Origin: a virus
Taxonomy: Duplodnaviria > Caudoviricetes
Strand: one strand, 5' to 3'
Length of the DNA: 63,169 nucleotides
Virus record (IMG/VR): IMGVR_UViG_3300043468_000449
Location: 1-63,169 of that record
This document shows positions 12,155 to 50,923 of this stretch, one piece after another. The first letter of the stretch is position 1, and every line of letters starts with the position of its first letter. The position numbers and the translations under genes were made by a program. The notes beneath the pieces were generated by a model. The model saw only the letters and a list, made by a program, of their open reading frames with translations, searched no databases and was not told where the DNA came from.

Positions 12155-15100
12155 TTACTCTATCGGAGATTTCATTCCTGTCAAAGGCGCGGCTGAACCA
12201 ACTGCCGGGGGTTTTAAATCAGATAATAGTTTTTCCGCTTTCGCTAAAGCCACCGCAAGTTTTTGTTTGGTTTTTTCATTCGTAGGATCGACCTCTGATA
12301 ATTCTCGTTTTGTTTTATCGACCTTCAATTCTGCTTTTTCAATTTTCTCCGCTTCTTTCTTGGCATCTTCTTTTTCTTTTTTTCGAGCGGCAACAAGTTG
12401 AGCATACTCTTCTGGAGTTTTTGGTTTTTGAACACCTGTCAAGCCCACCTCTGTGTCATAAGGAAGCAACCTGATTAATTCTTTTTTCTTTGTGCCGTCA
12501 TCTTGATCGATTGTGCGTTCTAACTGGAAAAGCGTTCCGTAATCCAACATCTCTTCGACATTCTCTGCGGCATCTGCGTAGTCAGCAGGTTCAGCACCCG
12601 AAACCTGCGCTCCGTACAATCCAAACAACTCTTTTTCATTGTACCAGAGTGCCGCTTGCATATCGGCAATAGTGATGTCAATTCCTTTTCTGCGGAGTTT
12701 TTTTTGCGCCAGTTCCATTGTCGATTGTTGGAAGTCACGCTCAAGATCGGTGCGAGGCGCGGCAACAGGATCGGCTCGATTTTCTACCCAGTTTTTTGCC
12801 GCCCTACGCAAATCGCTTTTTTGCTTGTATTGTCCGCTACGGAATCGTTTTTCCAATGTAGTAGCCAAATCCAGCATTGCTTGAGGATCATTGAATAGTT
12901 CTTGAATTTCTTCATTGGTTTTTCCAGTCAATTCTGCCTCATCGTAATACTCTACATATTCATAAACCTTTTTTCCGTCTTTCTCTTTTACCTTTTTTAG
13001 TAATGGCTCAAACTTTTCTCCTGCGGCTTTTGCGACATCACTTCGATACTGTTCAATTAGTGCTTTTTGAAAAGCGACATATTGATTTGCCTCTTTAAGT
13101 GGGGCGTGTTGAAAAACATTCCCAAGGATACGATTCCAAGTGCGAGTGTACCACAAGTCAGCAGTCAGCGTAGAATAGTCGCCATGTAGGTTATTGATGA
13201 ACGATCCAATCTTCGGGCCAAACACGCTAAACCCTGTTACCATCTGCTCCGCTTGACCATCAACAGTCAAAGGCTCTCCTTTAAACCATAAATTTTTATT
13301 TTGTTTTAAATATGCATTCCATTCAGAAACTGACATTTTTTTCCTGAATAATTTGTCCAGTTTTTTAATGTCGTTATTCTGTAAAAGTTCATGCAATTTT
13401 AAGAAATTATTTTCAACAGCACGGGTTTCACCGCCGAATGTGCCATACAATTCGCCAACATCTTTTTTAACAAGTTCAGGAAGAGTTTTGCCACCTTCCA
13501 ACAAGAATTGTACCCTCGCCGCCATTTTCCCATTCTCGAAAACATTGTTTCCTTGAGAAGTAATTCCTAGCACCGCATCAAAAATAAACTCTTTATTGGC
13601 ATCATAGTTTTTTGATTTTCGGTCAAGGAACGGGAAGAATTTCGCGTACCTTTCCTTCATTAGTTTTAATGCGGTATCGTACCAACCAATGGCATTCGGT
13701 GCATTTGGGTCTTGCTTCGCTCGCTCAATGTGACCCAAAACCTCGTCTACAATTGTTTCAGAGATGATTTGTCCTGCCCGTGGACTGTAATCTCCCGGCT
13801 CGATAAACCCATCGTCAGCACTACGCTTTTGTAGTGCATACAACAAATCGTCAACTTTTGTTTTTAATTTGCCCTCTTTTGTATAAAAGGAATCTGGAAC
13901 AACGAACTTTTCTGTTCCTTCCAGAATAGGTGTAACTGACCTGCTTAACCCTGTTGCAGGGTACAACTGCTCTCGGATGTAATCTGCAACTTCCTGCCCT
14001 AATCCGTATCGTTCTGCGAATCTGTTCGGGTCGAAAGTGAACCCTTGTCCTGCGAGGACTTTTGCGTAGGGGACAAGAATTGTATCGATGCCCCTTCGGA
14101 GTAATATGGTGAGTCCTCCGGGAGCGGAGTCCCCCCCAACGCCTCGCACTCCTTCCTCCATTCCTCCCTGCTGATTTTGTATATCTGTTTCATTTGTTTG
14201 TTTTCCTGTTAACCAATCTGGAACCCTGACACTCCCATCTTCTGCTGTAAAGTCTGAAGTTGTGTCATAATAAAACGAATCGACAAGAGTATCGTGGAAA
14301 TTTTTAATATTCGCCGCTTTTTGAATTTCAATGAGTTTTTTCCCGAATTCTTTGATCCCATCAAAATTCGCGGCTTTGATGCCTTTGCCATCGACTGTCA
14401 ATGACAACCCATCGATGCCCACTTCTTCCGCTTTTACGAATGCATTTTTGATTTGCTCTTCGGTAAGTTTTTTGTCGTGGACAAGGTAAACAGCAGGCGC
14501 ACCATCGGTGAGTCCTATGCTGGGTTTCCATGCGATCCCGGCATCTTGAGTCATTAAAAATGACAACCATTTGGTCACAGTCTGCGCCTGATCCCAAGTC
14601 ATCCCCGGAGCATTAAACACGAAGCTAGGCTCAACCTCAAATTTCCATGTTCCCAGAATATTGTCGAAATTGATTCCCTGCAACCCAGCCGCATCAACTA
14701 TAAAATCCTTAAATTTTTTAGATTTAAAAATTGTGGTTAATGTCGATTGAAGATCAGGAACCAAAACTCTCCGATCCACCGGGAATTTGAATGGAGGAGG
14801 AGTCATGCCCAGCTTGGCATCATTAATTGCCTTAATAGAACGATCCACCTCGACCATGCGAATTGCATCCCGCAAAGTAAATTCTTTGTCAGGAAGTTCC
14901 TCAAAACCTTCCAAGAGTTTTTTATTCTGTTCGTATATTTCAACATCTCTTTCTTTGAAGGGTTGCTGTTTTGGATCGACATCTTGAATTGCCCACCATG
15001 CTTTGCCGATTGCGGTCAAGGCATCTTTCTTTGCATTTAAATTATCAAGATTTGGATTTAAATAAGACAACAATCTTTCTTTGCGTTGTTCCGCGCTTTC

Positions 15101-18100
15101 CAGCTTCGGCTGAAGTTCAGCTATAGAAGTAAAGTCAAATCCATATCTTCCCGGTTTGCCGCCAATCACAACAGAAAAATCCCCAGCATCTTTCTGCATG
15201 GTTCTTTCAACAGATTTTGGCAAAAATTGAATTGCAGGTGGCATGAATTGAGCAATCGGACCAACAGGCTTATCGTCCTTCTCAAGAATTTTGATTAACT
15301 TGTCATCGAAGACCACATAGTTGCTCGTTCCCTCTCCCGCGCCCCGGCTCAAAGCATCCCAATACCGAATGCCGGGAACCCCTTGCTCCAGCAGAAATTT
15401 AGATGCTTTCGGAGCATCTTCGGCGGGTCTTCCACCAAATGCATTTGTTATGTATACATAAGCCGATTTCCCTGTTATCGATAACGGGTCTGGCATTGGT
15501 TTTTGAAGTCTCTCCAACTCGCCGGGGCGGAATGGTCTTCCACCTAATCGTGTTCCTCTTTGGATAATTGCTTCTCTTGCTTTTTGAGTTTTGTCGAATT
15601 CACTTAAAATTGTAGGAAGAACAGCATCTTGGACTTTTTTGCTTTGTTCACTCAAGGGTTTATCCCAATCCAATAAATCACCTTCTTCAACATCAATATC
15701 AACCTTATACAGGCTACCAACTTGAATTTTGGAAGGGTCTTTTAAACCTTTAACTCCAGCATTGAACCACCAATTTAAAATTTCTTCAGCATAGGCATTG
15801 TCAGTAGCCGCATCTTTTTCATCTTCAAGCATTCTGATTGCACGATCAATAGTTTTACGATCAGGCATCCCTCCACTTTTTCTTGCTTTTAAAGCGTCTG
15901 TTAAAATTCCAAACAAATCAATAATTTGTTGATTTTGAATAACATCTTCACTTGGAGATTCGACTCCATCAATTCTTATGTTTTTTGCTAATTTAGTTTG
16001 GTAGCCTTCTGATACTTGCCTTAAACCTGCAAAATATAATCCCCATCCATAAGCCTGCGCTCCCTCGCCTTCTCCTATTTTTTCAATGCTAAATCTATCA
16101 AAATCGTAAGGAGAACCATGCCATGCAGGAAGATATTGTATTCCCGGTGGTGCAACAACTGCGTTGGAGAATTCTGTTCCACTTTGAATTCGCGAGTTAA
16201 GCGAATCACGATATTGTATTAAATCGTTTGACGCCGATTCAATCTCTTTGAATTGCGAATCAGCAGGCATTTCCTGCACGGGACGCACAGGAGGCTCAAT
16301 ATCGCGCAAAGGCGGAATCATATCGCTAATCCTGCGGTATTGCGTAGGCAGTTCGATGCCTTGCAAGCCTTCTGGTTCAGTAGTTGCGCCTTCAACTTCA
16401 GCAGGCATGAATTGCAACTGCCCTGCGCGAACTACATTCTCCATCTGCGGAGTGATGTTTACTCGCCAGATTGGGGTTGTGTCTCCCTTTCGAGCAAGTT
16501 CTTGAAGTAATTCAGCATCAGTAAAATCATCTATTTTTTTATCAGGTTTTGTAGTAGCAATTTCAGACTTCTCAACCTTGCCACCCATCTTGGATACATA
16601 TTTGCCAATCTCTTTTGGAAGGATCGTGTCGTAGAATCCTTTCATGCCTTCGCCTCCGACATCAAGATCAAGACCTTCAAATTCTGCGCTTGCTAATGAT
16701 GGTTGTGGTGAGGACTTAATTTTTTCAATTGATTGAGCAGAAAGTTCCTTACCAATAAATTCGCTTAATTTTGCTTCAGGAATTTTTTCTTCATTGATTC
16801 TTGATTGACCATCTTTGTATGCACTTAATGCATATGTGTTTTCTCCATCAAGAATTACAACAATAGAGTCAACTTGTTTGCTCAATTTATAGCGTTCAGC
16901 CTGCGTTTCTCCAGTAGTCCAGCCAATCCATTGCTTGCCAGATTCAACGGCATCACGCAATGCTCGTTTGAAGAGTTGTAATGACCAATCTTTGCGGAAT
17001 GGTGCGTCTGGGATTGAGCCGGGAACCTCCCCTGAATTTGCGCTTTTAATCGCTTCTTCTTTTGTTTTTGCCCCAAACCCTACTTGAGTTTTAGAGGCAT
17101 CAAAAACCATCCATTCAGTTCCCGTCTGGCGACCTCCACGATATTCGTATACAGGGACTTCTTCGACAGTCCAACCATCTGGGAGGACATCGCCTTGCCC
17201 TTGGTATCCCTTCTCCCTCCCCGCTTGATGCCGATCAGATTGCAACTCTTCGATAAACAATCCATCGTTGCCTTCAGCATCTGTGCGCTCGTTAAGACGC
17301 ATATGCGCTACATAGTTGGGGATGTCAGGGAAATGAGATGAAGTGTATGATTGATCATCTCGCGAAGCGGCATTGTTCTCGTCTATCCGAATGAATAGTT
17401 GGTCAAGTCTTGCTTGTTGCTCTGGGGTTCTATTATCCGTTTCAAATCTCAATTTTTGATACTCATCCAGTTCGGATTTGGTCAAAAATTTTGATTCTTC
17501 GACTCTTGGCATTGCCATCACAACTTCACGATAGTTTTCACCGCCGGGGAGTTGGTATTTGCCAAATTTAGGAGGTTTAGTTAATCCTTCGCCTTGCAAA
17601 TCTAATTTCTCTGCTCGCGTATTTAAGAATTCATTCTCTCTAAAATACTTTTCAGCAGTCTTTTTGTCGCCACGCCTTTGAGCCTGTTGAGCTAACCTCA
17701 TCACTCGTTCAGCCTCATCGTAAAGCGTATCAGTAGTGCTTTGATCTCTGATGTTCATCAAGCGAATCAACTCATCATACTTCTCTTCGCCAAATGATGG
17801 ATCATCAACGGGATGATCTTTTAGATTTTTATATTCTGCCTCAAGTTCAGCAAGACGATTTGCATCAAATGGTTCTTTGCCGCCAAGTGTTACCTCTTCA
17901 AATTTAACTTGTCCCTCGTCGCGCAGATAATTAAGCAATTCTTGCACGGGAACCTTGCCGTTATTTTCACTTGCAAGTCGGTCGATTGCGTCATTGACTC
18001 CAGACCACTTAACTTCTTCCGCTTTGACATTTTGCGGGTTGTTAATAACTGCCTTCAACTGCTCTGGCGTTGCCATTGCACCACGGAACTTGCTTTGAAT

Positions 18101-21100
18101 TTCCATCTGCAATTTGCTTTGGAATCCACGCTCGCCAGATGGTGCTTCGATTTCGGCAACTTCGGCTGGAAGGAAATTCTTCTTTGCTTTTTCGTAATCT
18201 ACAGGAAGTTTTGGAAGATCACTTGCATCGATTAGTTCTGCCATGTGATCGATTCGCATAGACATAATTGTTCTGTCCATGCTCTTGTTTTTCTCGTCGC
18301 CCTTTCGTTTAGGAATCTTTGTTCGATCAAGATTTAATGCTTCTGTTTCTTTAGTGAATAGATTTAGAAAGTCATTAAATATCGATTTCTTTTGTTCTGC
18401 TACAGCAACATTGTCACTTAACTGATTAGTTCCTTCAGGCTCACCTTTGTCATTATATCCACTACCTTGGATGCCTTTAGACCAATTATCTAAATACTTT
18501 GTAGAAAATTCACTCCAGAATGTTTCTTTGCTTCCGTTCCAAGGAGAAAGTCGATTCGGCATCCGATCTGACCAAGCATTCAACTTCGACATCATTCTGC
18601 CAACTGAAATCGTTGTAACTAGAAAATTGCCTGCTTCGGATAAATGCAATCCAATTGGAACGACATCGTAAATCTTTGGTGAGAATGCTCTGTAGTTACC
18701 TTTATCGTCCATTACTGCGGCATAATCGACAAAGAATCGCGATCCATCTTTTTTGACAATCGCATCGTTTAACTCCAGAAGATATTCTTTAATCTTTAGA
18801 GGCACAATCCCCTCTGGCAATGCTTGAATCGCTTTAATCTGAAGCGGAGTAAAAGTGCCTCGGTAAGTATCGGAACCTTCAGAGACTGCCTCAAATCGCC
18901 CCGGTGTGCCATAGTCGGGCGTGTCGATTGCCTGCTTGAATAGTGTCGCTCGATCTTTCGCGATCTTCTTTAGATCGGCAGGCTTGAGAAGTTTTGGAGT
19001 GATGCCGTCCGCCTCGGTAACAATCTTTTTCGAGATAGCCAGAGTTCCACCTTCGGGAACTTGCAATTGACGCAATTCAACGGGGATTTGCCCATAACCA
19101 TTCAGTCGTTCTTCGCCATCCTTGGTAATGCGCCAAGTGCCTTCAAAAACCGCAGGATCGGTCACATCGACTGGAGTGCCTACAGGATTGCCATCTGCGT
19201 CGAATACCTGCGCCTGAACCTTTGTTGCAAACAATCCAGAGTCCATGCCGTAGCGTTCTGCCGCGATCTTGCTTTTACGAATATCAGCTTTCGAGATAGT
19301 TGCCGTTTCTGGTTGATTTTCAATCGTTGCAAAGTCTCCATTTAAACTCTCCAGCAACCGCATTGCATTTCGAGCGGCACTTTGAACTTCTGGTGGCAGA
19401 TTGGCTTTCGATGCATAGCCGACAACATCTCCAGAAAATCCGAGTCCTAGCAACTTCGTCGTAGCTTTTTTGATCAGGTTGTTTTTAAGTTTTGCCCTTG
19501 CGACATCCAACAAGTGAATGCTTTTTGGATCGATATTTTTACCAAGATTCCGAGAAAGCGTGTTAGAGAACAAGTCTGCAAGAATTTCTTCTTGCATATA
19601 GTCTGCCACATTCTTTCTGCTCAAAGAATTTGTCCCGTAGTCCCAGAGTCCGCTATTTTTTGCAAAGACCTCGATCTGTTTTTTATTGTAATTCTTTAAG
19701 TATGTCTTCTCGTAAAGATCGATCAATTGATCTTCGTTGTAGAGTCCAGTTGTGACTTCTTTAACATTGCCTGCCGCATCTCGGATTTGATTGCTGAATA
19801 GTAATTTTCTTGCTTCAGAAACCGCATCTTGAATTTCTTTGATTCGCAGGATTGCGTGACCTGTTTCGTGATTCAAAGCGTCGATTGGAGTCTCTCCGTA
19901 AATATCAATTCGATTGCGAAGAGCATCCGAATTAATAACAATCGATGGTTGCGCCTGATTGAATACAACATTCTTGACGGCATCGCTAACTTCCATGCCG
20001 GGTCGAAATTCGTTTTGACCTGTTCCACTATAAAATCCCTGCTGTCCTGCAATTTCGTAAATCATCTCGTCAGGCACATCGCGCAATGCAGGATTCTGCC
20101 TGAAATGATTGAAGATTTGATCTGTGCTTAAAATGTGAATGCCAACATTGTTTTGACCCGCTTTAAGCGCACCATTCAGCAAAAGATTATTTCGACCAAG
20201 TGCTGTTAGAAACTGCCTTCCAAATTCGTTTCGAGTCTGAACATTTGCAGTCTTGAGTAACGACAAGGATTTCTTTTCTGCCTCTAGTCTTTTTTCAGCT
20301 TCTTCAATTTTTTTGTTGTCAGGTGACTCGTTTACCAGTTTCTGAACTTCAGCCTCGGTATCTGCTACTCTCTTTGCCTGCCTTCCGATGACCAAGTCCC
20401 AATCGGTCAATTTATCAATCTCACCTCGTGTTTCAGGCGTCGAATCGCGATATGCCTTCAAAGCGTCCATATTGGCTTGCTTTGCCCTCCGAATCTGGAT
20501 CACGGGGTCTTGGCCCACAAACTTGTGATAAGTCTGCTGGACTGCCCTTCCGCCTAAAGAATAAGCCAATCCTTGGCCTACCATAGCCTTTAATTCTTCT
20601 TCGTCGGCAGAATCAATGATTCCAACTGCCAAGCTAATTAAAGTTGGCTCAACTCCCATCCTTGCATATTCACCAATATTAGCAATCGTGTCATCGCCAA
20701 CAAAACGCAGAATGCGTTTAGTAGTATCGCTTACCCTTCCGATTCCTTCGTAATCAACAATGCCTTCATTTTTAACTCTAGATTTTGCTACTTCTAAAGC
20801 CTGCTTCGTTTCAACATATTCATCAGTTCCCTCTGAAAGTGTTTTTAATTTCTGCGTCAAAGTCTTTACTTCATCTTGCTGTTTAGCAATAGCCCCCAAA
20901 GTAGCAAGTGGGCCTACGCTTCCTCCAGCAGATATCCTTCGTGCCGCTTGAACTTCTTTGATAACTTTTGGGATGTCTGCGAGTGTTCGCCCTCCATACT
21001 TCAATCCATACCTAGTTGCCAGCGCACCTAACCCCATTGAAGTCAATGCATTTTCTGGACTCAATTCATATCCAAGTGCCGCGCCGCCAATTGCAGTAAG

Positions 21101-22741
21101 TCCAGTTCCGAGTTTTTGCAATCTCGGACTCCTTTCAATATAATCACCCGTTTTTTCAATTCCTTTTGATACTGCTCCTGCGCCTTGCTCAACCAATCCG
21201 GGTTTTTTCAATGCCTCAAGTCTCTTGAGTTGTTTTGCTTTTAATAGTTCTTGCGCTCGTTTTTCAATCGCATTGATTTGATCATCAGTATAACGCAGTT
21301 TTTGAAAGGTTTTTCGAGCAATAGGAGTCAATTGTCCTGCCGCACGAACAACATTCATTGCATAGCCAACTTGATCAAGTCCAAATGCTTCAGGTAAAGC
21401 TAAATCAGCAAATGCCGCCATTTCTGGATCGGTTTCTGGAATTGATTTTTTAACATCATCGACTACAGAAATAATTGAACTTTCAATGTCAGCTTCGCGT
21501 TTAGATGCCGCTTCCTCTGCACTCAAATCAGGATACATAATCATGTATTCCTTAACTGATGGATGTGTAAGACTAGAAAATGATTTTAATGTTGGAACAT
21601 AATAAGTATCAACAAAACGCTTCCATTCGTTTGGTTGTGCTTTTAACCATTTTGCTTGAGCGGTATCTACTTCGTTTCTTGCGCTCCATCGATTATAGGC
21701 ATCTTCTTTAGATAGAAATCCAAATTTTTCACTTACATTATCCCATGTTTGCATCCCTCCACTTCCAACCTTTTGTGCAGTCCATGTTATAGATGGAGGC
21801 AATGCCGCAATTGGAGCAGTCAAAGAATATGGAACTTGCTTTGCCTTGTATCTCTTTTCTTCAAATTCTTTGTCGATACTAGCACTCTGTTCTGGAGTTA
21901 GATATTCTTTGATTTTAGCAAGATACTTTGCGTCAGTATAAGCATCAGGATTTGGTTGCTCTCCACCTTTTACTGGAGTATTAGCAATCTGCCATGCTCG
22001 TTTACGCCAGCTCTCAACTTCTGCTTTTTTGTCTTCTGGTAATAACTTCTCTGCCGCTTTTGCTTCAGCGTAATCAGATGTCATCCCAACTAATGCTGGC
22101 GCACCTTGAACTACGGCTTTTCCCGCACCATATGCTCCTTGCTCTAAAGATTTAACTAATGTCTCAAATATATCTCCAGCATCTTCGGTAACATTGATAC
22201 CTAAATTAAACCATTCCTCTGCATTCGTTGGAACCTTTCCGTATGGAGATGATTCTCTTTTTTGTCTCTCAAATTCAAATATTTGACGATTTTGCTTTTC
22301 TGTAAAAGTTACATCAGGTCGTATTTTTTTAAATTCGTATAAATTTTCAGGATCAAGTGTCTCAATTAATTGCCTATCTTCTAGCGTAAATTGTTCATCA
22401 GGTTTTTCACCAATTACAGTAGATACAATGTTAATTGGTTTTGAGAAGTCGATCTCTGGCTCCTTTTCTGTAATAGGAGCAGGAGTAGGAGCAGGAGCAG
22501 GAGCAGGAGCAGGTGTAGGCGCAGAAATGGTAGCACCCTCTTCTTTTGGTTCTTCAACTGCCTGCGGAATTTCTTCCTTCGGCTTTTCTTCAGTAGGTTG
22601 TTGAGGAGATAAAACAGAATCAATTTCTGACATTAATGAGTCAGCATCGTCTTCTTTATCTTCCTTCGGTTGCGTTGATTCAGTTTGATCTCCAAGAACA
22701 TTATCAATGTCTTTGAGCAATTCATCAATTCCTTCAGCCAT
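12155..22741 (-). CDS. Giant ejection / large polyvalent protein (3528 aa) with HExxH peptidase-like, GNAT-like, ADP-ribosyltransferase-like and HhH-glycosylase-like segments
   Basis: Last large gene of the virion module; contains [56 protein letters not shown] and [22 protein letters not shown]. Confidence 0.8.
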
Positions 22742-24435
22742 TATTTTTTAAGTTTGATTTGAATTTCACGCAATTGTGCCTTTAAAGCCTCTTTATCGTT
22801 TCCTTCTGGAATTTGTTTAATTTGATTAACTAATTGTCTAGCTGAATTCACTAAATTTTCCGATTCAGGAACCTGTTCTGTAACTTTAAAATTTTCTATA
22901 TCGTATCCAGCTTTTTCTAAATTTCCTATTGTTATTTTTTTTCTGGTTTGCAAAGTATTTAACAAATCATCCATTAATATTTTAGCTACTTTTGGGTCTC
23001 TTTGAATGTTTGGAATTAATGCTTTATATCTACGAACATCATCATCCGTAAGAACTCCAACCTCACCAAATACACCTCTAGCCAACCCCGGAGTTAAACT
23101 ATCAACCAAATTATTAAGCCTTATTGCAAGACTATCATAGCCAACGCCACCAATCAATTGCCTTAATCTGCCAACCATAGGCCCACTTTTATTTCCAACT
23201 TCCGACAATACACCTTGAATATCTTTCAATGTCGCTTCAGCAGAATCAATATTATTGAACTTTTCTAAATGTGCTTGAAGAAGTTTATGTTTTTCTACTC
23301 CTTTCCCTTTTTCTTCAGCAAGTTCTTTAGCGGTTTTTCTTTTTGGAGGATTAACCCTGAATCCTCTTCGTCCTTTTTTAGTAATTACTTGAATTTCTGC
23401 CTCGTTATATTCAGGCCCAAAATGTTCGGCAAGTTGTTTTTGAGATTTCAAAGCGTTTTCATAATTCGCATAATCATTCACAAGATTGCTAATTTGAGTT
23501 TCAACAGGTTGTTGTGGAACTCGCTTTACTTGCTGTCTTTCTTTTTCTGGAAGTGGAACTTTAGTCAAAGCACCCATACCAAGTGGCATCTCGCCTGTTT
23601 CCGCATAAAACTTCTCGGCAATCGCAGAACGCTCTTGCGGAGTCATCAATGACATTGACCTTGTATTAATATCTACACTAGGTTGCGCCTGAACTAGTGC
23701 TTTGCCAGCAACAACATCTGTGGACATTGGCGCAATAATTGGCGCAAGACTTGTGCTTGTCAATTGATCATATTGTTTTTGCGGAGATGCTTCGGCAGTC
23801 AATTCAGAAAGTGGTTTACTCAATAAAGCCTGCACATCTTGTTCAGTTGGGCCAACTGAAGATAATGGGTTTAATACATCTTCAGTTTCTTCTGGCAATC
23901 CTAAATCCCATATTCCAGAAGGCAATTCTTCATCTGTAACATCATAGGCATCCATGTCAGATAAATTTTGTTCATCTGCAAATCCACCTTGATTGCCATC
24001 TTCATCTACAAATCCTTCTTCACCTTCTTCTTGAGCTTTCTTTTTTCTTTCTTCAATTTGAAGTTTAAGATTTTCTAGTTGAGCGTTTTTATACTCTTCT
24101 TTTTGCTTGTCTTCTTCAGCACCTTTAGAACCTCTTGCAATGGCAACAGCAAGTCGATTATCTCTATCAAGTTGTTCTTTTGTTTTTTGTGCTTTAGCTT
24201 TTCTATCATCAACAAATGCCGCAGTAATGCCTTTCAACGCATCACCAATGCCTTCTTTCAAACCACTCGCCCATGCATTGGAAACCAGTTCTGGTTGCTC
24301 GGATTTAACCTCTAAAAACTTTTGAGGCTGAAATTGCAAAGCGGTGTGAATCGCTTTAACTGGTCGCATTCCTTCTAATGGAGATGCAGAACGAATTGTA
24401 GCGAATTGCGGTGTGAAAGAGTATGATTCAGGCAT
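22741..24435 (-). CDS. Internal virion / ejection protein
   Basis: 564-aa helical protein upstream of the giant gene; C-terminal ARG.FGE.GVLTD.D..RY...P segment. Confidence 0.6.
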   Translation of the reverse strand: MPESYSFTPQFATIRSASPLEGMRPVKAIHTALQFQPQKFLEVKSEQPELVSNAWASGLKEGIGDALKGITAAFVDDRKAKAQKTKEQLDRDNRLAVAIARGSKGAEEDKQKEEYKNAQLENLKLQIEERKKKAQEEGEEGFVDEDGNQGGFADEQNLSDMDAYDVTDEELPSGIWDLGLPEETEDVLNPLSSVGPTEQDVQALLSKPLSELTAEASPQKQYDQLTSTSLAPIIAPMSTDVVAGKALVQAQPSVDINTRSMSLMTPQERSAIAEKFYAETGEMPLGMGALTKVPLPEKERQQVKRVPQQPVETQISNLVNDYANYENALKSQKQLAEHFGPEYNEAEIQVITKKGRRGFRVNPPKRKTAKELAEEKGKGVEKHKLLQAHLEKFNNIDSAEATLKDIQGVLSEVGNKSGPMVGRLRQLIGGVGYDSLAIRLNNLVDSLTPGLARGVFGEVGVLTDDDVRRYKALIPNIQRDPKVAKILMDDLLNTLQTRKKITIGNLEKAGYDIENFKVTEQVPESENLVNSARQLVNQIKQIPEGNDKEALKAQLREIQIKLKK

Positions 24436-24965
24436 TACATTCCTCCAAATTGAAGTCCTTGAGCGGACGGGAGTGAGAAGTTAGTGTTTTGTTGAGTTCC
24501 GCCAACGCCAGCATTGGATGCCAGAATAGGTGGAATCCCCATTTGCATAGAAGATGGCGCATTAGTCGAAGCAGGCCCAGCAACGCCGCCTGCCGCCGCA
24601 ATCTTTTGCTGTTGCGCGGAACCTACATTGTAGCCACTTCCGCCTGCGGTAGTGCTGGCGGCATTCTGCGCGGCTTGCTGGTCGAGTCGTTGCTGATTCT
24701 GCGCGGCACTAGTGAAATCTTTTTGAATCTGTGTTTCTGCCTGCCTGCGGAAGTCTGCGGCTTTTTGATTTTCAGCTTGGATGTTCTGTTCACGAATCCT
24801 TGCCGCTTCTTCGTCATCTCTTTTTTTCTTTGCGGCATCTGCGGCTTTTCTGGCATCATCCATTTGTTTCCGCATAGCCGCTTGCTGTGCGGCAATCTGC
24901 GATGAATAGTCAGGTTGACTGCTTCCGCCGCCACTTTTTTTGCCTCCACCTTTACTTCCGCCCAT
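24435..24965 (-). CDS. MGG...FGG-X family protein 3 (putative ejection protein)
   Basis: Starts MGGSKG, Ala/Gln-rich coiled coil, ends FSLPSAQGLQFGGM. Confidence 0.75.
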   Translation of the reverse strand: MGGSKGGGKKSGGGSSQPDYSSQIAAQQAAMRKQMDDARKAADAAKKKRDDEEAARIREQNIQAENQKAADFRRQAETQIQKDFTSAAQNQQRLDQQAAQNAASTTAGGSGYNVGSAQQQKIAAAGGVAGPASTNAPSSMQMGIPPILASNAGVGGTQQNTNFSLPSAQGLQFGGM

Positions 24966-24967
24966 AA

Positions 24968-25468
24968 TTAAGTTCCTCCGAATTGTAGCCCGGTAGTCTT
25001 GGGCATTGTGAATACATTAGTAGTTGTCGGCTGATTTGCTTCCGTAGTAGGAAGATTTGCAGTCCCTCCCATTCCAACCAAAGCGCGTTGACGAGCGGCA
25101 TTTAGATTGTATCCAGCACCAGTCGCCGCCGCTCCTGCGGACAATGCCGCTTGACGCTCTTGCTCCTGCTTTTGCTGATCCGCCATCGTTTGTGCGCTAG
25201 AGATTGCAGAAAGTTCTTGTTGCGCCTTCGACTCTTGTTGCCTACGAAGTTGTGCGGCGGCGGCATTCTGGCTTTCAATTGCCGCTTGCTTTTGTTGTTC
25301 TTCAAGTCGCCTGCGCTCTTCCTCATAGGCTTGCTGTTGCTGTTGATACATCTGCATCTGCTGTTGCATCTGCTGATTGAACATTGCCTGTTGCATCTGC
25401 ATTTCTTGCTGACGCAAGGCTTGCTCTGCTTTTATTTGACTTTTGCTGGGGCCGCCTCCTCCACCCAT
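24968..25468 (-). CDS. MGG...FGG-X family protein 2
   Basis: Starts MGGGGG, Gln-rich, ends FTMPKTTGLQFGGT. Confidence 0.75.
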   Translation of the reverse strand: MGGGGGPSKSQIKAEQALRQQEMQMQQAMFNQQMQQQMQMYQQQQQAYEEERRRLEEQQKQAAIESQNAAAAQLRRQQESKAQQELSAISSAQTMADQQKQEQERQAALSAGAAATGAGYNLNAARQRALVGMGGTANLPTTEANQPTTTNVFTMPKTTGLQFGGT

Positions 25469-25495
25469 AGTTTTATTTTCCTTTCAGTTTATTGT

Positions 25496-26077
25496 TTATG
25501 CCCCGCCGAATTTAATACTCGACATATCAGGCAATGAAAATGTATTGGCAGTTGCAACTTTTGGAGTTGTTGTTGTTGGTTTGTATGTGAAATCGATTGG
25601 CAAATCAGACGGCATAGTTGTATCACTAGTTTTAGTTTGTGCAAGTGTTGCAGTCGTAGGTGATGTTGCCGCAGTTGCAGTAGTTGTAGCAGGTGAAGTT
25701 GTTGCCGCAGTAGTCGTTGGATAGGTCGGAGATTGCGTTCTTAAATTAGCAAGTTTTTCGCGTTGCTGTGCTTGCATATTTTGCAAGACTTGTTGCTGTT
25801 GATGAAAGTATTCAGGATTGGATGACAATCCTTTTGTCATTGGAGCATATGAACTTTGCTTTGGACTAATCCAGTTCATTAATGGCGCACCATAGTTTTT
25901 ATCAACAGTTAACCACTTGCCTCCACTTGTTGGCAAAACATTAAGCGGATCCATTATATTCAGAGGATCAACAACTTTTCGCAATTTAGCCGAATACTTG
26001 CCTAGTCCTACTTGGTGTAGTGGATCAAGATTTTTTGTTACAAATGTGCCAACAGATTTAGTGAATGAACCACCCAT
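25496..26077 (-). CDS. MGG...FGG-X family protein 1
   Basis: Starts MGGSFT, Thr-rich linker, ends FSLPDMSSIKFGGA. Confidence 0.75.
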   Translation of the reverse strand: MGGSFTKSVGTFVTKNLDPLHQVGLGKYSAKLRKVVDPLNIMDPLNVLPTSGGKWLTVDKNYGAPLMNWISPKQSSYAPMTKGLSSNPEYFHQQQQVLQNMQAQQREKLANLRTQSPTYPTTTAATTSPATTTATAATSPTTATLAQTKTSDTTMPSDLPIDFTYKPTTTTPKVATANTFSLPDMSSIKFGGA

Positions 26078-26079
26078 AA

Positions 26080-26361
26080 TTATAATCCTATTTTTGACCT
26101 AGCTTCCAAGCAAAGTTTCGATCCGGGTTCAAATAATCTACACGCAGTAGGTCGGCAATTATAAACAGAACACTTAACTGCGGTTCCAACTTCACCTACT
26201 AAAGCTACGCACCTGTTATTTTCAGTCTTCATCAGAGGATAGTCAGTTCGTTGCATTTCTTGCGGGATGCCAGTTGCATCTGATCGATCTCGTTTGAAGA
26301 TCGGCCATGACCACTTAAAACTGCAACAAGCTCCGCATTTTTCACAATCATAGTTTGTCAC
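26080..26361 (-). CDS. YkgJ / CxxCxxCC family Cys-cluster (Fe-S or Zn) protein
   Basis: DCEKCGACC ... RCVAL.G.VG..V.CSVY..RP.ACR.F..G...CLEAR. Confidence 0.85.
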   Translation of the reverse strand: MTNYDCEKCGACCSFKWSWPIFKRDRSDATGIPQEMQRTDYPLMKTENNRCVALVGEVGTAVKCSVYNCRPTACRLFEPGSKLCLEARSKIGL

Positions 26362-26792
26362 ATTCCGTACATTTTTCCAACCCCAGAAAGCGCACTAGTT
26401 GCCAATGTTTTTCCTGCATTTGCCCATGCGTTACTGACTAATTCAGGGTTCGTGCTATGGATTTCAAATGGATTCATAACCATAAAATTTAAGGCATCTG
26501 GATTATTTTTTAGTTTTTCATTCATCTCTAGTTGTTTTTGCATTTCCAGATATTTCTTATACATTTCAGATTGATTTTGACTCGTCAAAGCGGCAGATGC
26601 TGGACTACTGAAATCAATATCGCTAATACCCTGTGCTAATGCGCCAAGACCTTGACCTATTCTTTTATTTTGCGCTTGCTGTGCATCAAATGCCGCTAGG
26701 TCTGCGGCGGTTGCTTGAGTTGCTTTAGGGACTGTGCCTGCCGCAAATTGCGCTTCGCCTATTTTATTTGTTCCTGTGTTTGCTCCACCCAT
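26358..26792 (-). CDS. MGG-start protein sharing a segment with the 564-aa ejection protein
   Basis: Starts MGGANT; contains PELVSNAWA. Confidence 0.7.
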   Translation of the reverse strand: MGGANTGTNKIGEAQFAAGTVPKATQATAADLAAFDAQQAQNKRIGQGLGALAQGISDIDFSSPASAALTSQNQSEMYKKYLEMQKQLEMNEKLKNNPDALNFMVMNPFEIHSTNPELVSNAWANAGKTLATSALSGVGKMYGM

Positions 26793-26793
26793 A

Positions 26794-27627
26794 TTATTTC
26801 TCCCAAGTTACTGGTTTGAATCCTAAATCTGGTATCACGATATCTTCGTATGGTGCAAGATGTGATATATTTGTCACAGTTGCTTTTAACTTTGGGCAAT
26901 ACACTTGATTGCCTTGATGTCGATCTACACAATTTAAGCAAGTCGGATAGAAGTCTGCGTTCAAAGATTTATCAGGATTGTTTGTCCACCCAGATTTTGT
27001 TTTAATATATCGGGTTGGATCGGCTTTTACTTTGTTATCTTCTAGATATTGATAAATGTCGCGATCAGTCCAATCGCGCATAAGGTAAAGCGAAACGGGA
27101 CTGCCATCAGCATGGCGAATATCCTGCGAAATAGGCACATGACCCTTGATCAAATCAGTATCGGAATTCTTTGTTCCAATCCAAACAGACTCCCACGGCC
27201 AATTAAAGGTTCCTGTGGGTCGTTTTAGGAAGTCATCCACACCGCACATGAATTTCTCGCCTTTCTTTGGACGCTCGGTTCCTAATGACAAAACAACTGC
27301 TTTGGTTCCCCATTGGAAGTAGTGCAGAAGATCAAAGCGCACCTCGCCAGTTTCTGTATCAGGACCATCTGCTAATGCAAATCGGCTTGCAGGGTAGTCA
27401 AAGACAGTCAAATCCCAGTCTCGGATCAATTGATCTGAATACGCATAACGCTCGCGAAATTTCGGTTGCCTAAATTGAATTACAGGGACATCGATTCCAG
27501 CTTGAAATTTGAGCAAATGAAGCATCGCAGTCGAGTCTTTGCCGCCTGACCACAGAACGACAGAATTGGGCCAATTTTTCGCCCATAACTTGGCTTTCTC
27601 GATTGTTTCGTTAATAAGTTGATCCAT
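26794..27627 (-). CDS. PAPS-reductase-family (PP-loop) protein
   Basis: VLWSGGKDSTAMLHL PP-loop, IGTKNSD, DWTDRDIYQYL and C-terminal CLNC...CP. Confidence 0.85.
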   Translation of the reverse strand: MDQLINETIEKAKLWAKNWPNSVVLWSGGKDSTAMLHLLKFQAGIDVPVIQFRQPKFRERYAYSDQLIRDWDLTVFDYPASRFALADGPDTETGEVRFDLLHYFQWGTKAVVLSLGTERPKKGEKFMCGVDDFLKRPTGTFNWPWESVWIGTKNSDTDLIKGHVPISQDIRHADGSPVSLYLMRDWTDRDIYQYLEDNKVKADPTRYIKTKSGWTNNPDKSLNADFYPTCLNCVDRHQGNQVYCPKLKATVTNISHLAPYEDIVIPDLGFKPVTWEK

Positions 27628-27644
27628 ATAGACAGATTTTTTGT

Positions 27645-28517
27645 TTATATGATAATCGCCGCCGCACCGATTGCCGCACCACCAAGTGCCGCACCACTTT
27701 CAATCATCTTCCCTTTTGCGGAATTTTGGCTAATTGCATTATTTACTGCCGCATTGTATAAAGATTGATCATAAGCCTGACGATTTTGTCTTTGAACATT
27801 AGATAGATTTAAAATCTCTCCCATATTTTTACTTAAATAGTCAAAAGTATTCTGTTGTGCTTCTCCAAGTCCAGTCCCTAATTGTTGCGCTCCTGCAAAA
27901 ATATTCTTCTGCCAATCCGCCATTGCGCCAAGGTTCTGCGCTTCTTGTCCCATCCTCGCGCCAATTAAAGTGCCGGGATCAAGTCCCCCAGTCGGGCGTT
28001 GCTGGCTAGAAACGAACCTATTTCGCAGTTCAATATCTTCCAGCATCCGCTTGCGTCCCTCTTCGGTGGACACATCTGCAAGCATGGATCGACCAAAAGA
28101 TGACGAAGGATCGACTCCAGTTCCGCTGACCGCAGAAATGCCTTTATTTTTCAACCAAGCATCCATGCGGTTTTTAAAAGACTCGTCAGAGGTCACCGCT
28201 TCGATTTGCTCTGGCAATTGATACCGCATACGAGCGGTGGCTGGAGAAAGCAACTCTTCGCCTTGCCTTGTTCTTGCCTCATTCGATAAACCAAATTGCG
28301 CGGCTTGCCGAGAAGTCTGCTCTGCATCGAAATCCTGCATCAATGGTTGCGTCTGCCGATACAGATCAAATAACTGACTTTTAGTTCCAATGTCAGCAAG
28401 TTGACCTTCTAATGCGCCTTGACCATATTGAAATTTTTGCGCTAGAATAGCATTATCTGTTTGATAATCAGGTCGGCTCATGTATTGACCCGGATTGACT
28501 GTTGCGGCTCCACCCAT
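27645..28517 (-). CDS. Putative ejection / pilot protein with a C-terminal hydrophobic Gly-Ala helix
   Basis: Starts MGGAAT; Gln/Ala-rich; ends GAALGGAAIGAAAIII. Confidence 0.65.
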   Translation of the reverse strand: MGGAATVNPGQYMSRPDYQTDNAILAQKFQYGQGALEGQLADIGTKSQLFDLYRQTQPLMQDFDAEQTSRQAAQFGLSNEARTRQGEELLSPATARMRYQLPEQIEAVTSDESFKNRMDAWLKNKGISAVSGTGVDPSSSFGRSMLADVSTEEGRKRMLEDIELRNRFVSSQQRPTGGLDPGTLIGARMGQEAQNLGAMADWQKNIFAGAQQLGTGLGEAQQNTFDYLSKNMGEILNLSNVQRQNRQAYDQSLYNAAVNNAISQNSAKGKMIESGAALGGAAIGAAAIII

Positions 28518-28519
28518 AA

Positions 28520-28909
28520 TTAATCCTTTCGTTTAATGTAAAATACTTCTCGATTTAATCGTTCCATTCCTAACTTATCCATGATTTCATTGGTGAATGT
28601 AAATCGCTCACTTTGCAATGGAACTCCAACATAGCCGGGACCACCTGTAAGTTGGTTGTAAACTCGCCAGTCATGCATAGTTTGTATCACATCCCGTGGC
28701 GTTGTAAAATCTGGATGGAAAGCAGGATAAATTGTTGGGATGAATACATGGTCACTATAGCCAACTAGCTTGTTATCTTTGTAATGACCATATACATTGA
28801 TTTGAGGATGATCTACAACCTTGTGATCAAATGTTTCCGCGAAATCAGCAAGTTCAAGAAACTCTGCTGAATCTTTAGGTATTAGCTTATATTCAATTGG
28901 TGATCTCAT
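28520..28909 (-). CDS. Possible GNAT-fold acyltransferase
   Basis: 129 aa with KDNKLVGY strand and IMDKLGMER tail; sits between nozzle and ejection genes as in T7/P22-like podoviruses. Confidence 0.4.
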   Translation of the reverse strand: MRSPIEYKLIPKDSAEFLELADFAETFDHKVVDHPQINVYGHYKDNKLVGYSDHVFIPTIYPAFHPDFTTPRDVIQTMHDWRVYNQLTGGPGYVGVPLQSERFTFTNEIMDKLGMERLNREVFYIKRKD

Positions 28910-28920
28910 GTATTTATTTA

Positions 28921-29172
28921 TTAGTTAAACCCAACAAAAATCTCATCTGGAACTGGGCCTTGTTTAAAACCTGTATACTGCGAAGCAACTTGATCCAAGA
29001 CATCTTGACGATCATTGTATGTGCCGCACAACGCACACGGCAAGCACTCATTTTGATTTTTTTCAAAAGGAATAGACGAGTAGACAGGAACCAGAAATTC
29101 ATCTGCAAAAGGCGAGATGAATTTATTCGGAAACTCTGTCAATCTTTCTTTTGATTTGGCAATACTTGGCAT
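28921..29172 (-). CDS. Hypothetical protein with a CxxCxxC motif
   Basis: 83-aa ORF containing CLPCALC. Confidence 0.6.
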   Translation of the reverse strand: MPSIAKSKERLTEFPNKFISPFADEFLVPVYSSIPFEKNQNECLPCALCGTYNDRQDVLDQVASQYTGFKQGPVPDEIFVGFN

Positions 29173-42405: not shown

Positions 42406-43878
42406 TTATAAATTGTTTGGTATGAATGCCGCTTGTTTCGAGCAAACGATAATTGTTGAAGAATATGTTATTTGGGCATAAGCGAAAACATAACGAGTCC
42501 CATCAGAATATGGAAATTGCGCGCTCCATGTTCCGTTTCCATTGTTTGTAGTCGTTGCGGAAACCCAAGTCCTGCTCATTGGATCAGCAGTTACAAGCGC
42601 ATAGTAAAATTGAACTGCTGTTACATCTTCTGGTTGAGATGGCGAAACTGTTGCCTTCGCAGTTCCAATCGAAACAATACTTGGAATTGTGTTTGGATTA
42701 GAAGGCCAAGTGATTGCAGAACCTTTTAGATACTTGTCAAACCACAGGCGAACATCCTGCTCAAATCCAGTAATGTCATGCGATGCATTAGCCTTAAAAG
42801 CATAGCTTCCTTGGACTGGAGTTATTTCAAAGTTGCGGAATCCTCGATCAAATTGACCATGAAAGTCATTCGTTGACATCATCCACAACATTGGGTTCCT
42901 AGCGTATTTTGCGTAGGCTTGGCATTCCAGAGTTGAGATATAAAGATTATTTCCGTCTGAAAACGGAGGCTCCGAATATGGAATGTTATACAACCAAACG
43001 GAGTTTGTTTTCCAATAATGAATCCATCCATTCCCATATTGAGCCACACAACATTTAATATCTGGGTCGATATTCATGTTGTAAGCAATCTGACCACCCC
43101 AGCTATTCCCGTAGAAGCCGATCTTGGTAATGTCAATGTCGGCGGTTAGAGTTTTGGTATACGCAAGAACCCTGCGAGGCATGGCGAACCAATAATACAT
43201 ATCTTGGTTGCGGACATCCTCAATAGTCGCAACAGATGCTTGGTTGGTATAGTTCGCGTTGGGATTCGTTACTTGGTTCAGCCGATTCAAAGCCGCTGGA
43301 TAAAGCGTCATCAAGGTGGTTGGATAACTATAAGTCCCATTGAAAGTTCCGCGCCAATCGTATTGTATTACTGCATAACCTAGATTTGCGTAAGTTGTAA
43401 AATCATCTACGGATGCGCCCCAGCCATTTGAGAAAATAAAACAAGGAAGGTTTCCCGATCCGCGAAGCGATGCCTTGACTTGGTATTTAACATACACACG
43501 AATCAGATAGCCGTTGATCGGCATATCAATGAAAGAATTTTGCGTGAATACTCCGTTTAATGTTGATGCGCCAATAATCGTTTCATTGAACGCTCCAGTA
43601 TTGGGATTGTAGTTGTTGTAAAGAGAACCAACATCCCAGACGCTCAAAGGGTTCGGAGTTACTGGCGTATTAGTGTCAGTCCTAACCCAGCTTCCGTTTG
43701 AGGCATAGGCAATCGCTTGATTGTTTACACCTTGCTTGCCGAAACCTATTCCATCCGTGCAATAGACTTGCGTTCCATTTGAAGAAGAAACAGAAAGTTC
43801 ATTAACTGGCAGTTGGACTAGACCTCCCGTTGTGGCATAGTCTAATTTGCGTGTAAATGGATTGAACTTAAACCCCAT
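42406..43878 (-). CDS. Virion-associated alpha/beta-hydrolase (esterase-like); start reassigned to 43878
   Basis: Nucleophile elbow GFYGNSWGG, NGWG oxyanion-like segment, TNDFHG and ASHD; N-terminal FNPFT.KLD shared with the fibre gene. Confidence 0.75.
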   Translation of the reverse strand: MGFKFNPFTRKLDYATTGGLVQLPVNELSVSSSNGTQVYCTDGIGFGKQGVNNQAIAYASNGSWVRTDTNTPVTPNPLSVWDVGSLYNNYNPNTGAFNETIIGASTLNGVFTQNSFIDMPINGYLIRVYVKYQVKASLRGSGNLPCFIFSNGWGASVDDFTTYANLGYAVIQYDWRGTFNGTYSYPTTLMTLYPAALNRLNQVTNPNANYTNQASVATIEDVRNQDMYYWFAMPRRVLAYTKTLTADIDITKIGFYGNSWGGQIAYNMNIDPDIKCCVAQYGNGWIHYWKTNSVWLYNIPYSEPPFSDGNNLYISTLECQAYAKYARNPMLWMMSTNDFHGQFDRGFRNFEITPVQGSYAFKANASHDITGFEQDVRLWFDKYLKGSAITWPSNPNTIPSIVSIGTAKATVSPSQPEDVTAVQFYYALVTADPMSRTWVSATTTNNGNGTWSAQFPYSDGTRYVFAYAQITYSSTIIVCSKQAAFIPNNL

Positions 43879-44032
43879 CGCTCGGTCTTTCTGGCAGAGA
43901 ATGTAAATCAATCTCGCTGGCTAATTTCGCTTGAGTCCCAGCGGGAGGTTGCCAATCTTCAAGATTGCCATTCCAGACCACAAGGTTAACCAACCATCCG
44001 CCTTCTTTATCAATTATTGCGTAAGTGTCCAT
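43868..44032 (-). CDS. Small tail-fibre assembly-like protein
   Basis: MDTYAIID..G..VN.VVW.G...WQPP follows the Gly-rich fibre gene. Confidence 0.55.
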   Translation of the reverse strand: MDTYAIIDKEGGWLVNLVVWNGNLEDWQPPAGTQAKLASEIDLHSLPERPSDGV

Positions 44033-50635: not shown

Positions 50636-50923
50636 TTAGTAGTTGATTTTACCTTCTGCGTTTACTTTGCCATGATATCGTTTTGCCCACTCATCTGCTT
50701 GCGATACTGTTTTGAATGATGGGTATTTATCAATCCCATATTGTTTTGCAGTATTAAATGCATCTCTGTCTGATAATTGTTTTCCTTCTACCATTGTTGG
50801 GATGACATACTGCCTGTCATCAATTCCGAATGTTCCCAACTTCACATTGCTTTCGCTCCCATCTGGATTTTTTACAGATGGATGTTTTGTAGGAAAACCT
50901 TTATAAGTTGCACTACCGCCCAT
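50636..50923 (-). CDS. Hypothetical protein starting MGG
   Basis: 95-aa ORF with N.DGS.S...IPTM..GK.L...YP.F.T...AD. Confidence 0.65.
   Translation of the reverse strand: MGGSATYKGFPTKHPSVKNPDGSESNVKLGTFGIDDRQYVIPTMVEGKQLSDRDAFNTAKQYGIDKYPSFKTVSQADEWAKRYHGKVNAEGKINY

Follow-up and report, generated by a model that had tools for sequence, protein, structure and literature searches.

Why should three consecutive genes of one phage end in the same short peptide? The question is raised by the IMG/VR virus record IMGVR_UViG_3300043468_000449, complete at 63,169 bp and carrying direct terminal repeats, which was analysed over its whole length (hereafter the window). Three adjacent genes, encoding proteins of 193, 166 and 176 amino acids (aa; AV193, T166 and M176, respectively; Table 1), all terminate in F-x-[LM]-P-x3-[GS]-[LI]-[QK]-F-G-G-x-stop, and were singled out for this tail in a first-pass annotation made from the sequence alone. 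The open reading frames (ORFs) and their tails are present as described, and the back-translated tail pattern occurs three times in the window, against a mean of 0.00 occurrences in 100 dinucleotide-preserving shuffles. The shared tail is real and far beyond chance. It is not the only shared element, as had been claimed at first pass, since AV193, T166 and M176 also have the start M-G-G in common. A fast-evolving, unnamed protein family, encoded at the head of an ejection-type gene cassette, has in this tail its conserved working part. Tentatively, it can be read as a terminal docking peptide which anchors small internal or ejection proteins, and of which the G-G-x carboxylate would be recognised by a conserved virion component.

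T166 and M176 are full-length paralogues, with 32 % amino acid identity over residues 3–149 (E = 2.4e-9). When AV193 was compared with these two proteins by BLASTP, the tail alone aligned (E = 2e-4 and 0.004), and to this extent the earlier description of the 193-aa protein as otherwise unlike its neighbours holds. The description fails, however, for its N-terminal part. The core of AV193 (without the first three and last twenty residues) matches the cores of three longer tailed proteins from other phages (BLASTP E = 4e-9 to 7e-7) across an N-terminal DPxNIMDP module, at about residues 10–75 of AV193, and these three bridging proteins match a hidden Markov model (HMM) of the remaining family cores at 1e-37 to 1e-49. 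None of the other ten AV193-type cores matched that HMM at E ≤ 10, nor did any of 130 shuffled sequences. As the bridging sequences match both the AV193 core and the family-core HMM, AV193 is a mosaic, diverged member of the same family, with low-complexity sequence rich in Thr and Pro having taken the place of the helical middle. Judged on these matches, the three window proteins represent diverged paralogues of one mosaic family, rather than including an unrelated protein that acquired a portable tag.

The distribution of the tail was determined through a degenerate DNA scan of all viral contigs with the pattern F-x-[NTN codon]-P-x4-[NTN codon]-[Q/K/E]-F-G-G-x-stop, which returned 95 matches in 73 loci. 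Eighty-seven matches lie at the end of genuine ORFs and carry the extended motif (one of these ORFs being cut by the contig end), while the remaining eight of the 95 are chance-like, the frame being short or interrupted or the stop codon replaced by TGG; real tails occur in 65/73 scanned loci. A looser regular expression applied to the same loci recovered additional tandem copies with T, A, V or S replacing Q/K. A scan of bacterial and archaeal genomes (596 billion bases, TAA stop only) gave 25 matches, none of which lies in a family-like ORF. Across 66 loci (the 65 scanned loci and the window), two tailed genes are found in 37, three in twelve and one in seventeen, these counts being soft as some of the seventeen single-gene loci are possibly cut by the 2-kb flank. 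Sixteen related IMG/VR loci, reached via the neighbouring PAPS-reductase-like gene (81–97 % identity), retain both the M-G-G start and the C-terminal tail in all three gene families.

An alignment of 95 unique proteins from the scanned loci (alignment A1) served as the basis for a profile search against 1.84 billion representative sequences, which yielded 190 clusters at E ≤ 0.001 and 111 at E ≤ 1e-10. All comprise proteins of 58–296 aa, with no long or fused forms seen among the 190 clusters. Among the best 150 of these 190 clusters, 104 carry the strict tail and 25 a loose tail ([F/Y/L]-G-G followed by 0–3 residues), while 21 have no tail, some of the latter being visibly cut gene calls or divergent. 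The motif is thus terminal in 129 of the best 150 clusters as well as in the sixteen related loci, in agreement with the first-pass annotation. A protein search by word index, using the C-terminal 47 residues of T166, identified only three close relatives. No credible match to the 95 family members was found in Pfam (E ≤ 1) or PHROG, nor was a credible NCBIfam family found for the three tailed proteins of the window, and literature searches, which returned only known model-phage work or unrelated matter, did not find this tailed family described. An unnamed family is marked by a sharp terminal motif, which is kept upon duplication while the remainder of the protein drifts.

Within the 95 family proteins, the two ends are the most constant parts, with a mean column information of 3.68 bits for residues 1–3 and 2.99 bits for the last sixteen residues, against 1.76–2.08 bits elsewhere. 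Gly occupies positions 2 and 3 in 88/95 proteins. The nearby Asn pointed out at first pass lies outside the selection pattern and is found at position −16 in 86/95 proteins, with that of M176 being at −15. Synonymous codons vary at every conserved tail position: Phe is encoded by TTC (44) or TTT (51), Pro by all four codons, and the Gly at −3 by GGA (56), GGC (19), GGT (19) or GGG (1). This synonymous variation indicates selection on the protein, and conservation of the tail appears to act mainly on the protein and on the DNA as well. Six of the 70 minus-strand ORFs of at least 80 aa in the window start with MGG, and five of these fall within the 24.4–28.5 kb block that includes the tailed genes. 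As GGA, GGT and GGC are all used in these starts, the Gly-Gly start is likewise selected as protein. The sixth MGG ORF (95 aa) is located in the head block, between a portal candidate and a scaffold-like gene.

The architecture between the two ends was predicted for M176 with AlphaFold2 (AF2) and alignment A1. The model, with a mean predicted local distance difference test (pLDDT) score of 67.5, comprises a coil (residues 1–19), a single 87-residue helix (20–106; 10-residue block means of pLDDT 72–98) and a short helix (115–125), with residues 107–160 being mostly disordered (block means 38–49) and the tail having block means of 55–58. The long helix is hydrophilic, consisting of 32 % charged residues, 24 % Ala and 18 % Gln, with no hydrophobic run exceeding nine residues. 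The three tailed proteins have grand average of hydropathy (GRAVY) values of −0.83, −0.99 and −0.44, and the longest hydrophobic runs in the two proteins checked are nine and seven residues. The earlier suggestion of a recognition signal at a fixed distance from a free C-terminus is borne out by the protein-level conservation, the disordered linker and the terminal position of the motif in 129/150 clusters.

The tailed genes are situated between tail-type genes (encoding proteins of 1240 aa and of 709 aa, the latter with a match to phrog_511, 'internal virion protein') and the genes for the 564-aa protein and the 3528-aa giant protein. Two near-complete relatives, G001 (98 % complete) and G002 (94 %), encode in order proteins of 1240, 709, 83 and 129 aa, a 290-type protein, the tailed proteins, a 623–647-aa protein and, at the same position as in the window, a giant homologue of 3425–3700 aa. 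This order can be compared with those of known podophage ejection systems. A gp14-like gene (encoding 181–240 aa) adjoins a gp15-like gene (431–982 aa), which is followed by a larger gp16-like gene (PMC8954989). In phage N4, gp52 (150 aa), gp51 (644 aa) and gp50 (~3500 aa) are transcribed in that order, the first ~16 residues of gp52 occupy the adaptor lumen in twelve copies, with gp51 wrapped around the portal (PMC13434306). The small-medium-giant order of N4 (150/644/~3500 aa), which is also that of gp14-15-16 in T7, is found in the window (166–193/564/3528 aa). The gp14-like and P22 gp7-like genes immediately precede the gp15/gp20-like gene (PMC8954989), and the tailed genes match them in this placement and in the size of the proteins encoded. 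The sequence of tailed genes, medium gene and giant gene is found in the window, G001 and G002, with the gp15-like nature of the 564-aa protein being a lead only. A further parallel with N4 is the elongated helical protomer: gp52 is predicted to be elongated and helical and is held by a terminal peptide of ~16 residues (PMC13434306), while M176 is modelled as an elongated helix with a conserved terminal peptide.

Terminal or loop peptides of small proteins are also held in the virion of T7. The last fifteen residues of gp7.3 (84–98) are each held by two adjacent nozzle subunits while its basic N-terminus contacts DNA, and loop II of gp6.7, which starts F34-G35-G36, binds gp15 (PMC11784390). 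As is proposed for the tailed proteins, gp6.7 and gp7.3 are small, largely unstructured, ejected and held by a loop, and gp7.3 starts MGKK. Five gp6.7 relatives have V-x-[F/W/Y/I]-G-[G/A] inside the protein. Three of the five have the C-terminus A-[F/L]-G-(G), to which KK is added in T7, and the other two end differently. The T7 proteins are, however, shorter (88–99 aa versus 166–193 aa), are encoded before the portal gene rather than in the gp14-16 block, and are without the N-x-F-x-L-P half of the motif. Differences from N4 gp52 exist as well: gp52 is a single-copy protein and forms membrane channels, whereas the window lineage has one to three paralogues which are strongly hydrophilic. The N-terminus of gp52 shares TNF, PSAQ and FG with the M176 tail by eye, which is not significant. 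By inspection, P22 gp7 (locus L215, P22 gene 7, 1370–2059), from which according to its record 20 N-terminal residues are cut by a host protease, has after the cut a KGGKGG followed by Ala/Gln-rich sequence that resembles the MGGSKGGG... start of M176, without statistical support. The nearest named Atlas cluster to M176 is P22_gp7 (0.76), which is a lead only. The 290-aa MGG protein of the window, with its Gly/Ala hydrophobic C-terminus, may, judged by eye, be the better gp7/gp14 counterpart, without significant BLASTP support. Homology of the tailed proteins to T7 gp6.7, N4 gp52 or P22 gp7 was considered and is not supported by hhalign or BLASTP; these resemblances suggest a possible mode of work, not family membership.

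With these parallels as a guide, the products of the three genes would be small paralogous proteins inside the virion of a short-tailed-type phage, belonging to the 'core' or 'ejection' class. Removal of the start Met would leave a free Gly-Gly N-terminus, followed by a Gly/Lys/Ser-rich tip and, in two of the three proteins, by a long hydrophilic single alpha-helix, which could serve to space the ends apart like a rod. From there, ~50 residues of disordered linker would lead to the last sixteen residues, N-x-F-x-[LM]-P-x3-[G/D/N]-[L/I]-x-F-G-G-x. These would form the docking peptide, possibly folded into a small hairpin (F/L on the first strand, L/F on the second), and insert the Gly-Gly-x-COOH end into a pocket of a conserved, symmetric virion part, for which the portal, the adaptor, the tail-channel lumen or a core formed by the 564-aa and 3528-aa proteins are candidates. 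The pocket would read the free carboxylate and not the last side chain, which could account for the last residue being variable while its distance from F-G-G is fixed. The paralogues may sit at equivalent positions around a single ring, being kept in the particle by the docked tail until, at infection, they exit via the phage tail into the host. The tail may belong to the general class of capsid-targeting or ejection-order tags, which was one of the suggestions made at first pass. Recruitment and exit order of the small internal proteins of short-tailed phages are known for few model phages, and from cryo-EM density rather than from a sequence signal. The motif is something definite to mutate, to transplant and to seek in maps, allowing incorporation and ejection to be tested in an uncultured lineage.

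Several observations weigh against the docking peptide. In the monomer model of M176 the tail is placed with only moderate confidence and is assigned as coil by DSSP, so that the hairpin remains conjecture. The F, P and F-G-G residues are invariant in A1 by construction, having been part of the selection pattern, while in the independent profile search the tail positions vary slightly (Y or L for F). No membrane helices were predicted in the tailed proteins, unlike gp14-type proteins, which have two to five (PMC8954989). The anchor is N-terminal in N4 gp52 and C-terminal in the tailed proteins. Profile comparisons by hhalign gave probabilities of 0.14 % for the tailed family against N4 gp52 (with BLASTP finding nothing), 0.6 % over four columns for A1 against the T7 gp6.7 alignment (A2; DUF5476), and 0.09 % against P22 gp7, and no Pfam match to DUF5476, or to PF25688 (P22_gp7) in the 95 members, was found. 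Gene order alone is no proof of a location in the virion. The docking peptide nonetheless is the explanation given the greatest, if still tentative, weight here. A bolder extension of it, which is doubtful, would be that the two constant ends, and the C-terminal tail above all, constitute a self-contained address label. Any polypeptide bearing it would be taken up into the core or exit channel of this phage lineage and be expelled into the host ahead of the DNA, with gene duplication and subsequent drift or replacement of the middle being a source of new injected proteins. If this were true, the Thr/Pro-rich AV193 would be a possible example, and the tag could be used as a handle for packing foreign cargo into phage particles.

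Four other functions can be proposed for the tail, and rank in the order of shell loading, host-directed function, tail-tail assembly and processing. The tail could, firstly, be a capsid-loading peptide which binds the inner face of the shell or the scaffold and brings many copies into the head, instead of fixing a few at the portal, tail or core. Encapsulin cargo-loading peptides, which we take as a model for such a tail, and the HbYX tails of proteasome activators presumably follow the same logic, namely a short C-terminal peptide on a flexible linker with a variable last side chain at a fixed distance to the end. They have no sequence relation to the tail and a different motif, and a shell or ring partner is hypothetical here, but the tailed proteins are laid out in the same way, with a flexible linker leading to a short conserved peptide at the C-terminus. 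High expression would be in keeping with the strong ribosome-binding sites and the TAA stops. So conserved a peptide should have a conserved partner, and no protein of the lineage is more conserved than the 402-aa capsid candidate, with a mean column identity of 84 % in an alignment of eighteen sequences (picked from 80 kept loci, G001 and G002, with 175 stretches matched overall). However, the tailed genes lie in an ejection-type cassette far from the head genes, and the 425-aa scaffold-like protein is without the tail and has a C-terminus that varies between the window, G001 and G002. Loading into the capsid is considered unlikely. The scaffold-like protein, which is very acidic and helical, is encoded between the portal candidate and the capsid candidate. 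Its own C-terminus (...ALGG) was considered as a shared end and rejected, as the end differs in G001 and G002.

Alternatively, the tail, and possibly the Gly-Gly N-terminus too, could function after ejection by recognising a putative component of the host envelope, with the helix serving as a rod that spans the periplasm. At 0.15 nm per residue the 87-residue helix would measure ~13 nm, and M176 has a weak, sub-threshold compositional match in NCBIfam to the helical part of TolA (E = 0.009). Ejection proteins do refold and work in the envelope (PMC8954989, PMC13434306). A host-directed peptide would, however, be expected to vary, while the tail is the most constant part of these proteins across divergent phages, making such a role improbable.

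It is more improbable again that the tails bind each other, with the hairpins of one to three paralogues forming a small beta structure that closes a homo- or hetero-oligomeric bundle of the long helices. Such an assembly would fit the predominance of loci with two tailed genes (37/66, as against three in twelve and one in seventeen) and the retention of distinct tail variants by paralogues, for example ...GLTFGGA beside ...SSDLKFGGV, but a disordered linker of 50 residues in front of the tail is odd for a bundle cap, and the gene counts carry the 2-kb flank uncertainty noted above.

A processing or ligation signal is very improbable. The G-G-x end would in this case be trimmed or activated, either in the manner of ubiquitin or Pup or by the PP-loop enzyme and CxxCxxCC protein encoded nearby, and joined to an amine such as that of the Gly-Gly N-termini, five of the six of which are clustered in this block. 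G-G followed by one residue ends each of the 95 selected proteins, as the selection required, and G-G followed by 0–3 residues ends 129 of the best 150 clusters, while the PP-loop enzyme is found beside the tailed genes in 50/73 loci and the CxxCxxCC protein in 49/73. However, neither gene was found in G001 or G002, both of which have tailed genes. As it is lacking in two near-complete relatives, the enzyme pair is an optional insert which the tail does not need, and the idea that it acts on the G-G-x end was set aside. The ubiquitin-like pro-tail proposed at first pass fares no better, since the AF2 model consists of helix and disorder with no beta-grasp fold, and no Pfam match to an E1-like, JAMM, Pup-ligase, sortase or head-protease family was found among the 78 ORFs of the window, although host enzymes could still act. 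Ubiquitin-type pro-tails are variable in length, whereas the extension here is nearly always exactly one residue. In a sortase signal, LPXTG precedes a hydrophobic stretch and a basic end; the [L/M]-P-x3-[G/D/N] of the tail is unlike LPXTG and ends four to five residues later without a hydrophobic segment.

Selection on the DNA is evident at the Gly-Gly codons. These form GGAGG in 53/79 genes with a successor starting ≤6 nt from the stop (three of the 79 calls being doubtful as they rest on a GTG inside the tail), and in 0/12 genes with a successor 21–73 nt away, where GGC GGG or GGT GGA is used and G-G-x-stop is still kept. The stop codon is TAA in 94/95. Where genes are coupled, the Gly-Gly codons thus double as the ribosome-binding site of the next gene, which adds a constraint on the spacing from G-G to the stop. 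The free last residue and fixed spacing remarked upon at first pass are both seen, but the spacing is partly this nucleotide effect. That G-G-x-stop exists only as a by-product of GGAGG-NNN-TAA spacing for the next start codon, as the GGAGG and TAA frequencies might suggest, is largely refuted as a full explanation and scarcely credible, given that the motif is kept in the twelve distant genes without Shine-Dalgarno codons and in 26 close genes without GGAGG, that the other eleven conserved positions are left unexplained and that codons vary everywhere; the ribosome-binding site would explain the codon preference and the spacing constraint, not the motif. The tail end illustrates neatly how the same few bases can be under selection as the terminus of one protein and, at once, as the ribosome-binding site for the gene that follows.

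The lineage carrying the tailed genes is large and known from metagenomes alone. In 50,697 GenBank phage records, tblastn found no match to the large terminase, the PAPS-like enzyme, the 564-aa protein or M176, nor did blastn find any to positions 22741–29000 in GenBank phage records, and as it has no relative there the lineage is treated as uncultured. Relatives of the 402-aa capsid candidate are encoded in 175 IMG/VR contig stretches, with 72–99 % identity among the 80 kept. The long ORFs of the window are all on the minus strand and include recognisable genes for an Sf6-type small terminase, a large terminase, and collagen-like and other tail-fibre proteins, as well as recombination and replication genes and two tRNAs. 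Sequence searches of the Protein Data Bank (PDB) with the 564-aa, 709-aa, 805-aa, 402-aa and 3528-aa proteins gave nothing useful. The features discussed are listed in Table 1.

Table 1. Coordinates of the tailed genes, their tail codons and the surrounding features in the window (-, minus strand)
Feature	Position	Strand	Description	Basis
AV193 (193 aa)	25496..26077	-	Family member; starts MGG; Thr/Pro-rich low-complexity middle; ends ...NTFSLPDMSSIKFGGA; also given as ...FSLPDMSSIKFGGA	ORF, orthologues, DPxNIMDP module
T166 (166 aa)	24968..25468	-	Family member; starts MGG; Gln/Met-rich helix; ends ...NVFTMPKTTGLQFGGT; also given as ...FTMPKTTGLQFGGT	ORF, orthologues, paralogue of M176
M176 (176 aa)	24435..24965	-	Family member; starts MGGSKGGGKK; ends ...TNFSLPSAQGLQFGGM; also given as ...FSLPSAQGLQFGGM	ORF, orthologues, AF2 model
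AV193 tail codons and stop	25496..25540	-	Gly-Gly codons GGC GGG, no Shine-Dalgarno; next gene starts 27 nt downstream	
T166 tail codons and stop	24968..25012	-	GGA GGA (24974-24979) = GGAGGA, 9 nt upstream of M176 start codon (24963-24965)	
M176 tail codons and stop	24435..24479	-	GGA GGA (24441-24446), 5 nt upstream of 564-aa gene start; ATG overlaps stop (TAATG)	
M-G-G starts	24957-24965, 25460-25468, 26069-26077, 26784-26792, 28509-28517, 50915-50923	-		
564-aa protein	22741..24435	-	Directly downstream of M176, translationally coupled; mostly helical; candidate gp15/gp20/gp51-like 'tunnel' ejection protein	
3528-aa giant protein	12155..22741	-	Largest gene, end of cassette	
CxxCxxCC metal-binding protein	26080..26361	-		PF03692, 39.2 bits
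144-aa protein	26358..26792	-	Starts MGG	
PP-loop ATP pyrophosphatase	26794..27627	-	PAPS-reductase/CysD-like; CxxC...C end	PF01507, 25.7 bits; NCBIfam CysD N-terminus, E = 3e-9
290-aa protein	27645..28517	-	Upstream; starts MGG; hydrophobic Gly/Ala-rich C-terminus; further internal-protein-block member	
501-aa protein	42406-43911		Tail-fibre region	
425-aa protein	49329-50606		Scaffold-like	

Across the 73 scanned loci, homologues of the 564-aa protein (BLASTP E ≤ 1e-4, as for the enzyme pair) adjoin the tailed genes in 50, and the usual order is that of the 290-aa (MGG) gene, the PP-loop enzyme, the 144-aa (MGG) gene, the CxxCxxCC gene, the tailed genes and the 564-aa gene. The nesting of an enzyme pair among structural genes is odd. 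The 564-aa protein is helical in a poor AF2 model (mean pLDDT 57.6), and a Foldseek search of this low-confidence model against the PDB gave no match at E ≤ 0.001. Its nearest neighbours by Atlas language-model features are clusters of PF16928 (Inj_translocase, P22 gp20-type; 0.92, with 151–158 shared features), which is a lead only. When it was co-folded (with A3, an alignment of 30 homologues) with the last 30 residues of M176 (with A1), the score was 0.00 against a mark of 0.32, in a run without controls, which speaks neither for nor against the pairing. The giant protein has weak matches to ART-PolyVal (E = 6e-4, below the cut-off) and to phrog_873 (endolysin-type). Despite the like size and position, a sequence search of the PDB did not match it to the virion RNA polymerase (vRNAP) of N4. 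In the tail-fibre region, the 501-aa protein has a sub-threshold match to Peptidase_S9 (prolyl-oligopeptidase, alpha/beta-hydrolase; E = 2.5e-4, 21.0 bits versus a cut-off of 22.6).

Conservation of the 564-aa protein is confined in alignment A3 to the first ~75 residues, the remainder being hardly alignable. This conserved N-terminus (Y5, P9, ...PELV..., G69, I70) is disordered in the model, as a binding peptide might be. Its residues 32–70 recur as a 39-residue stretch (...PELVSNAWA...; BLASTP E = 2e-7) in the C-terminal part of the 144-aa protein, and are thus a second short module common within the block.

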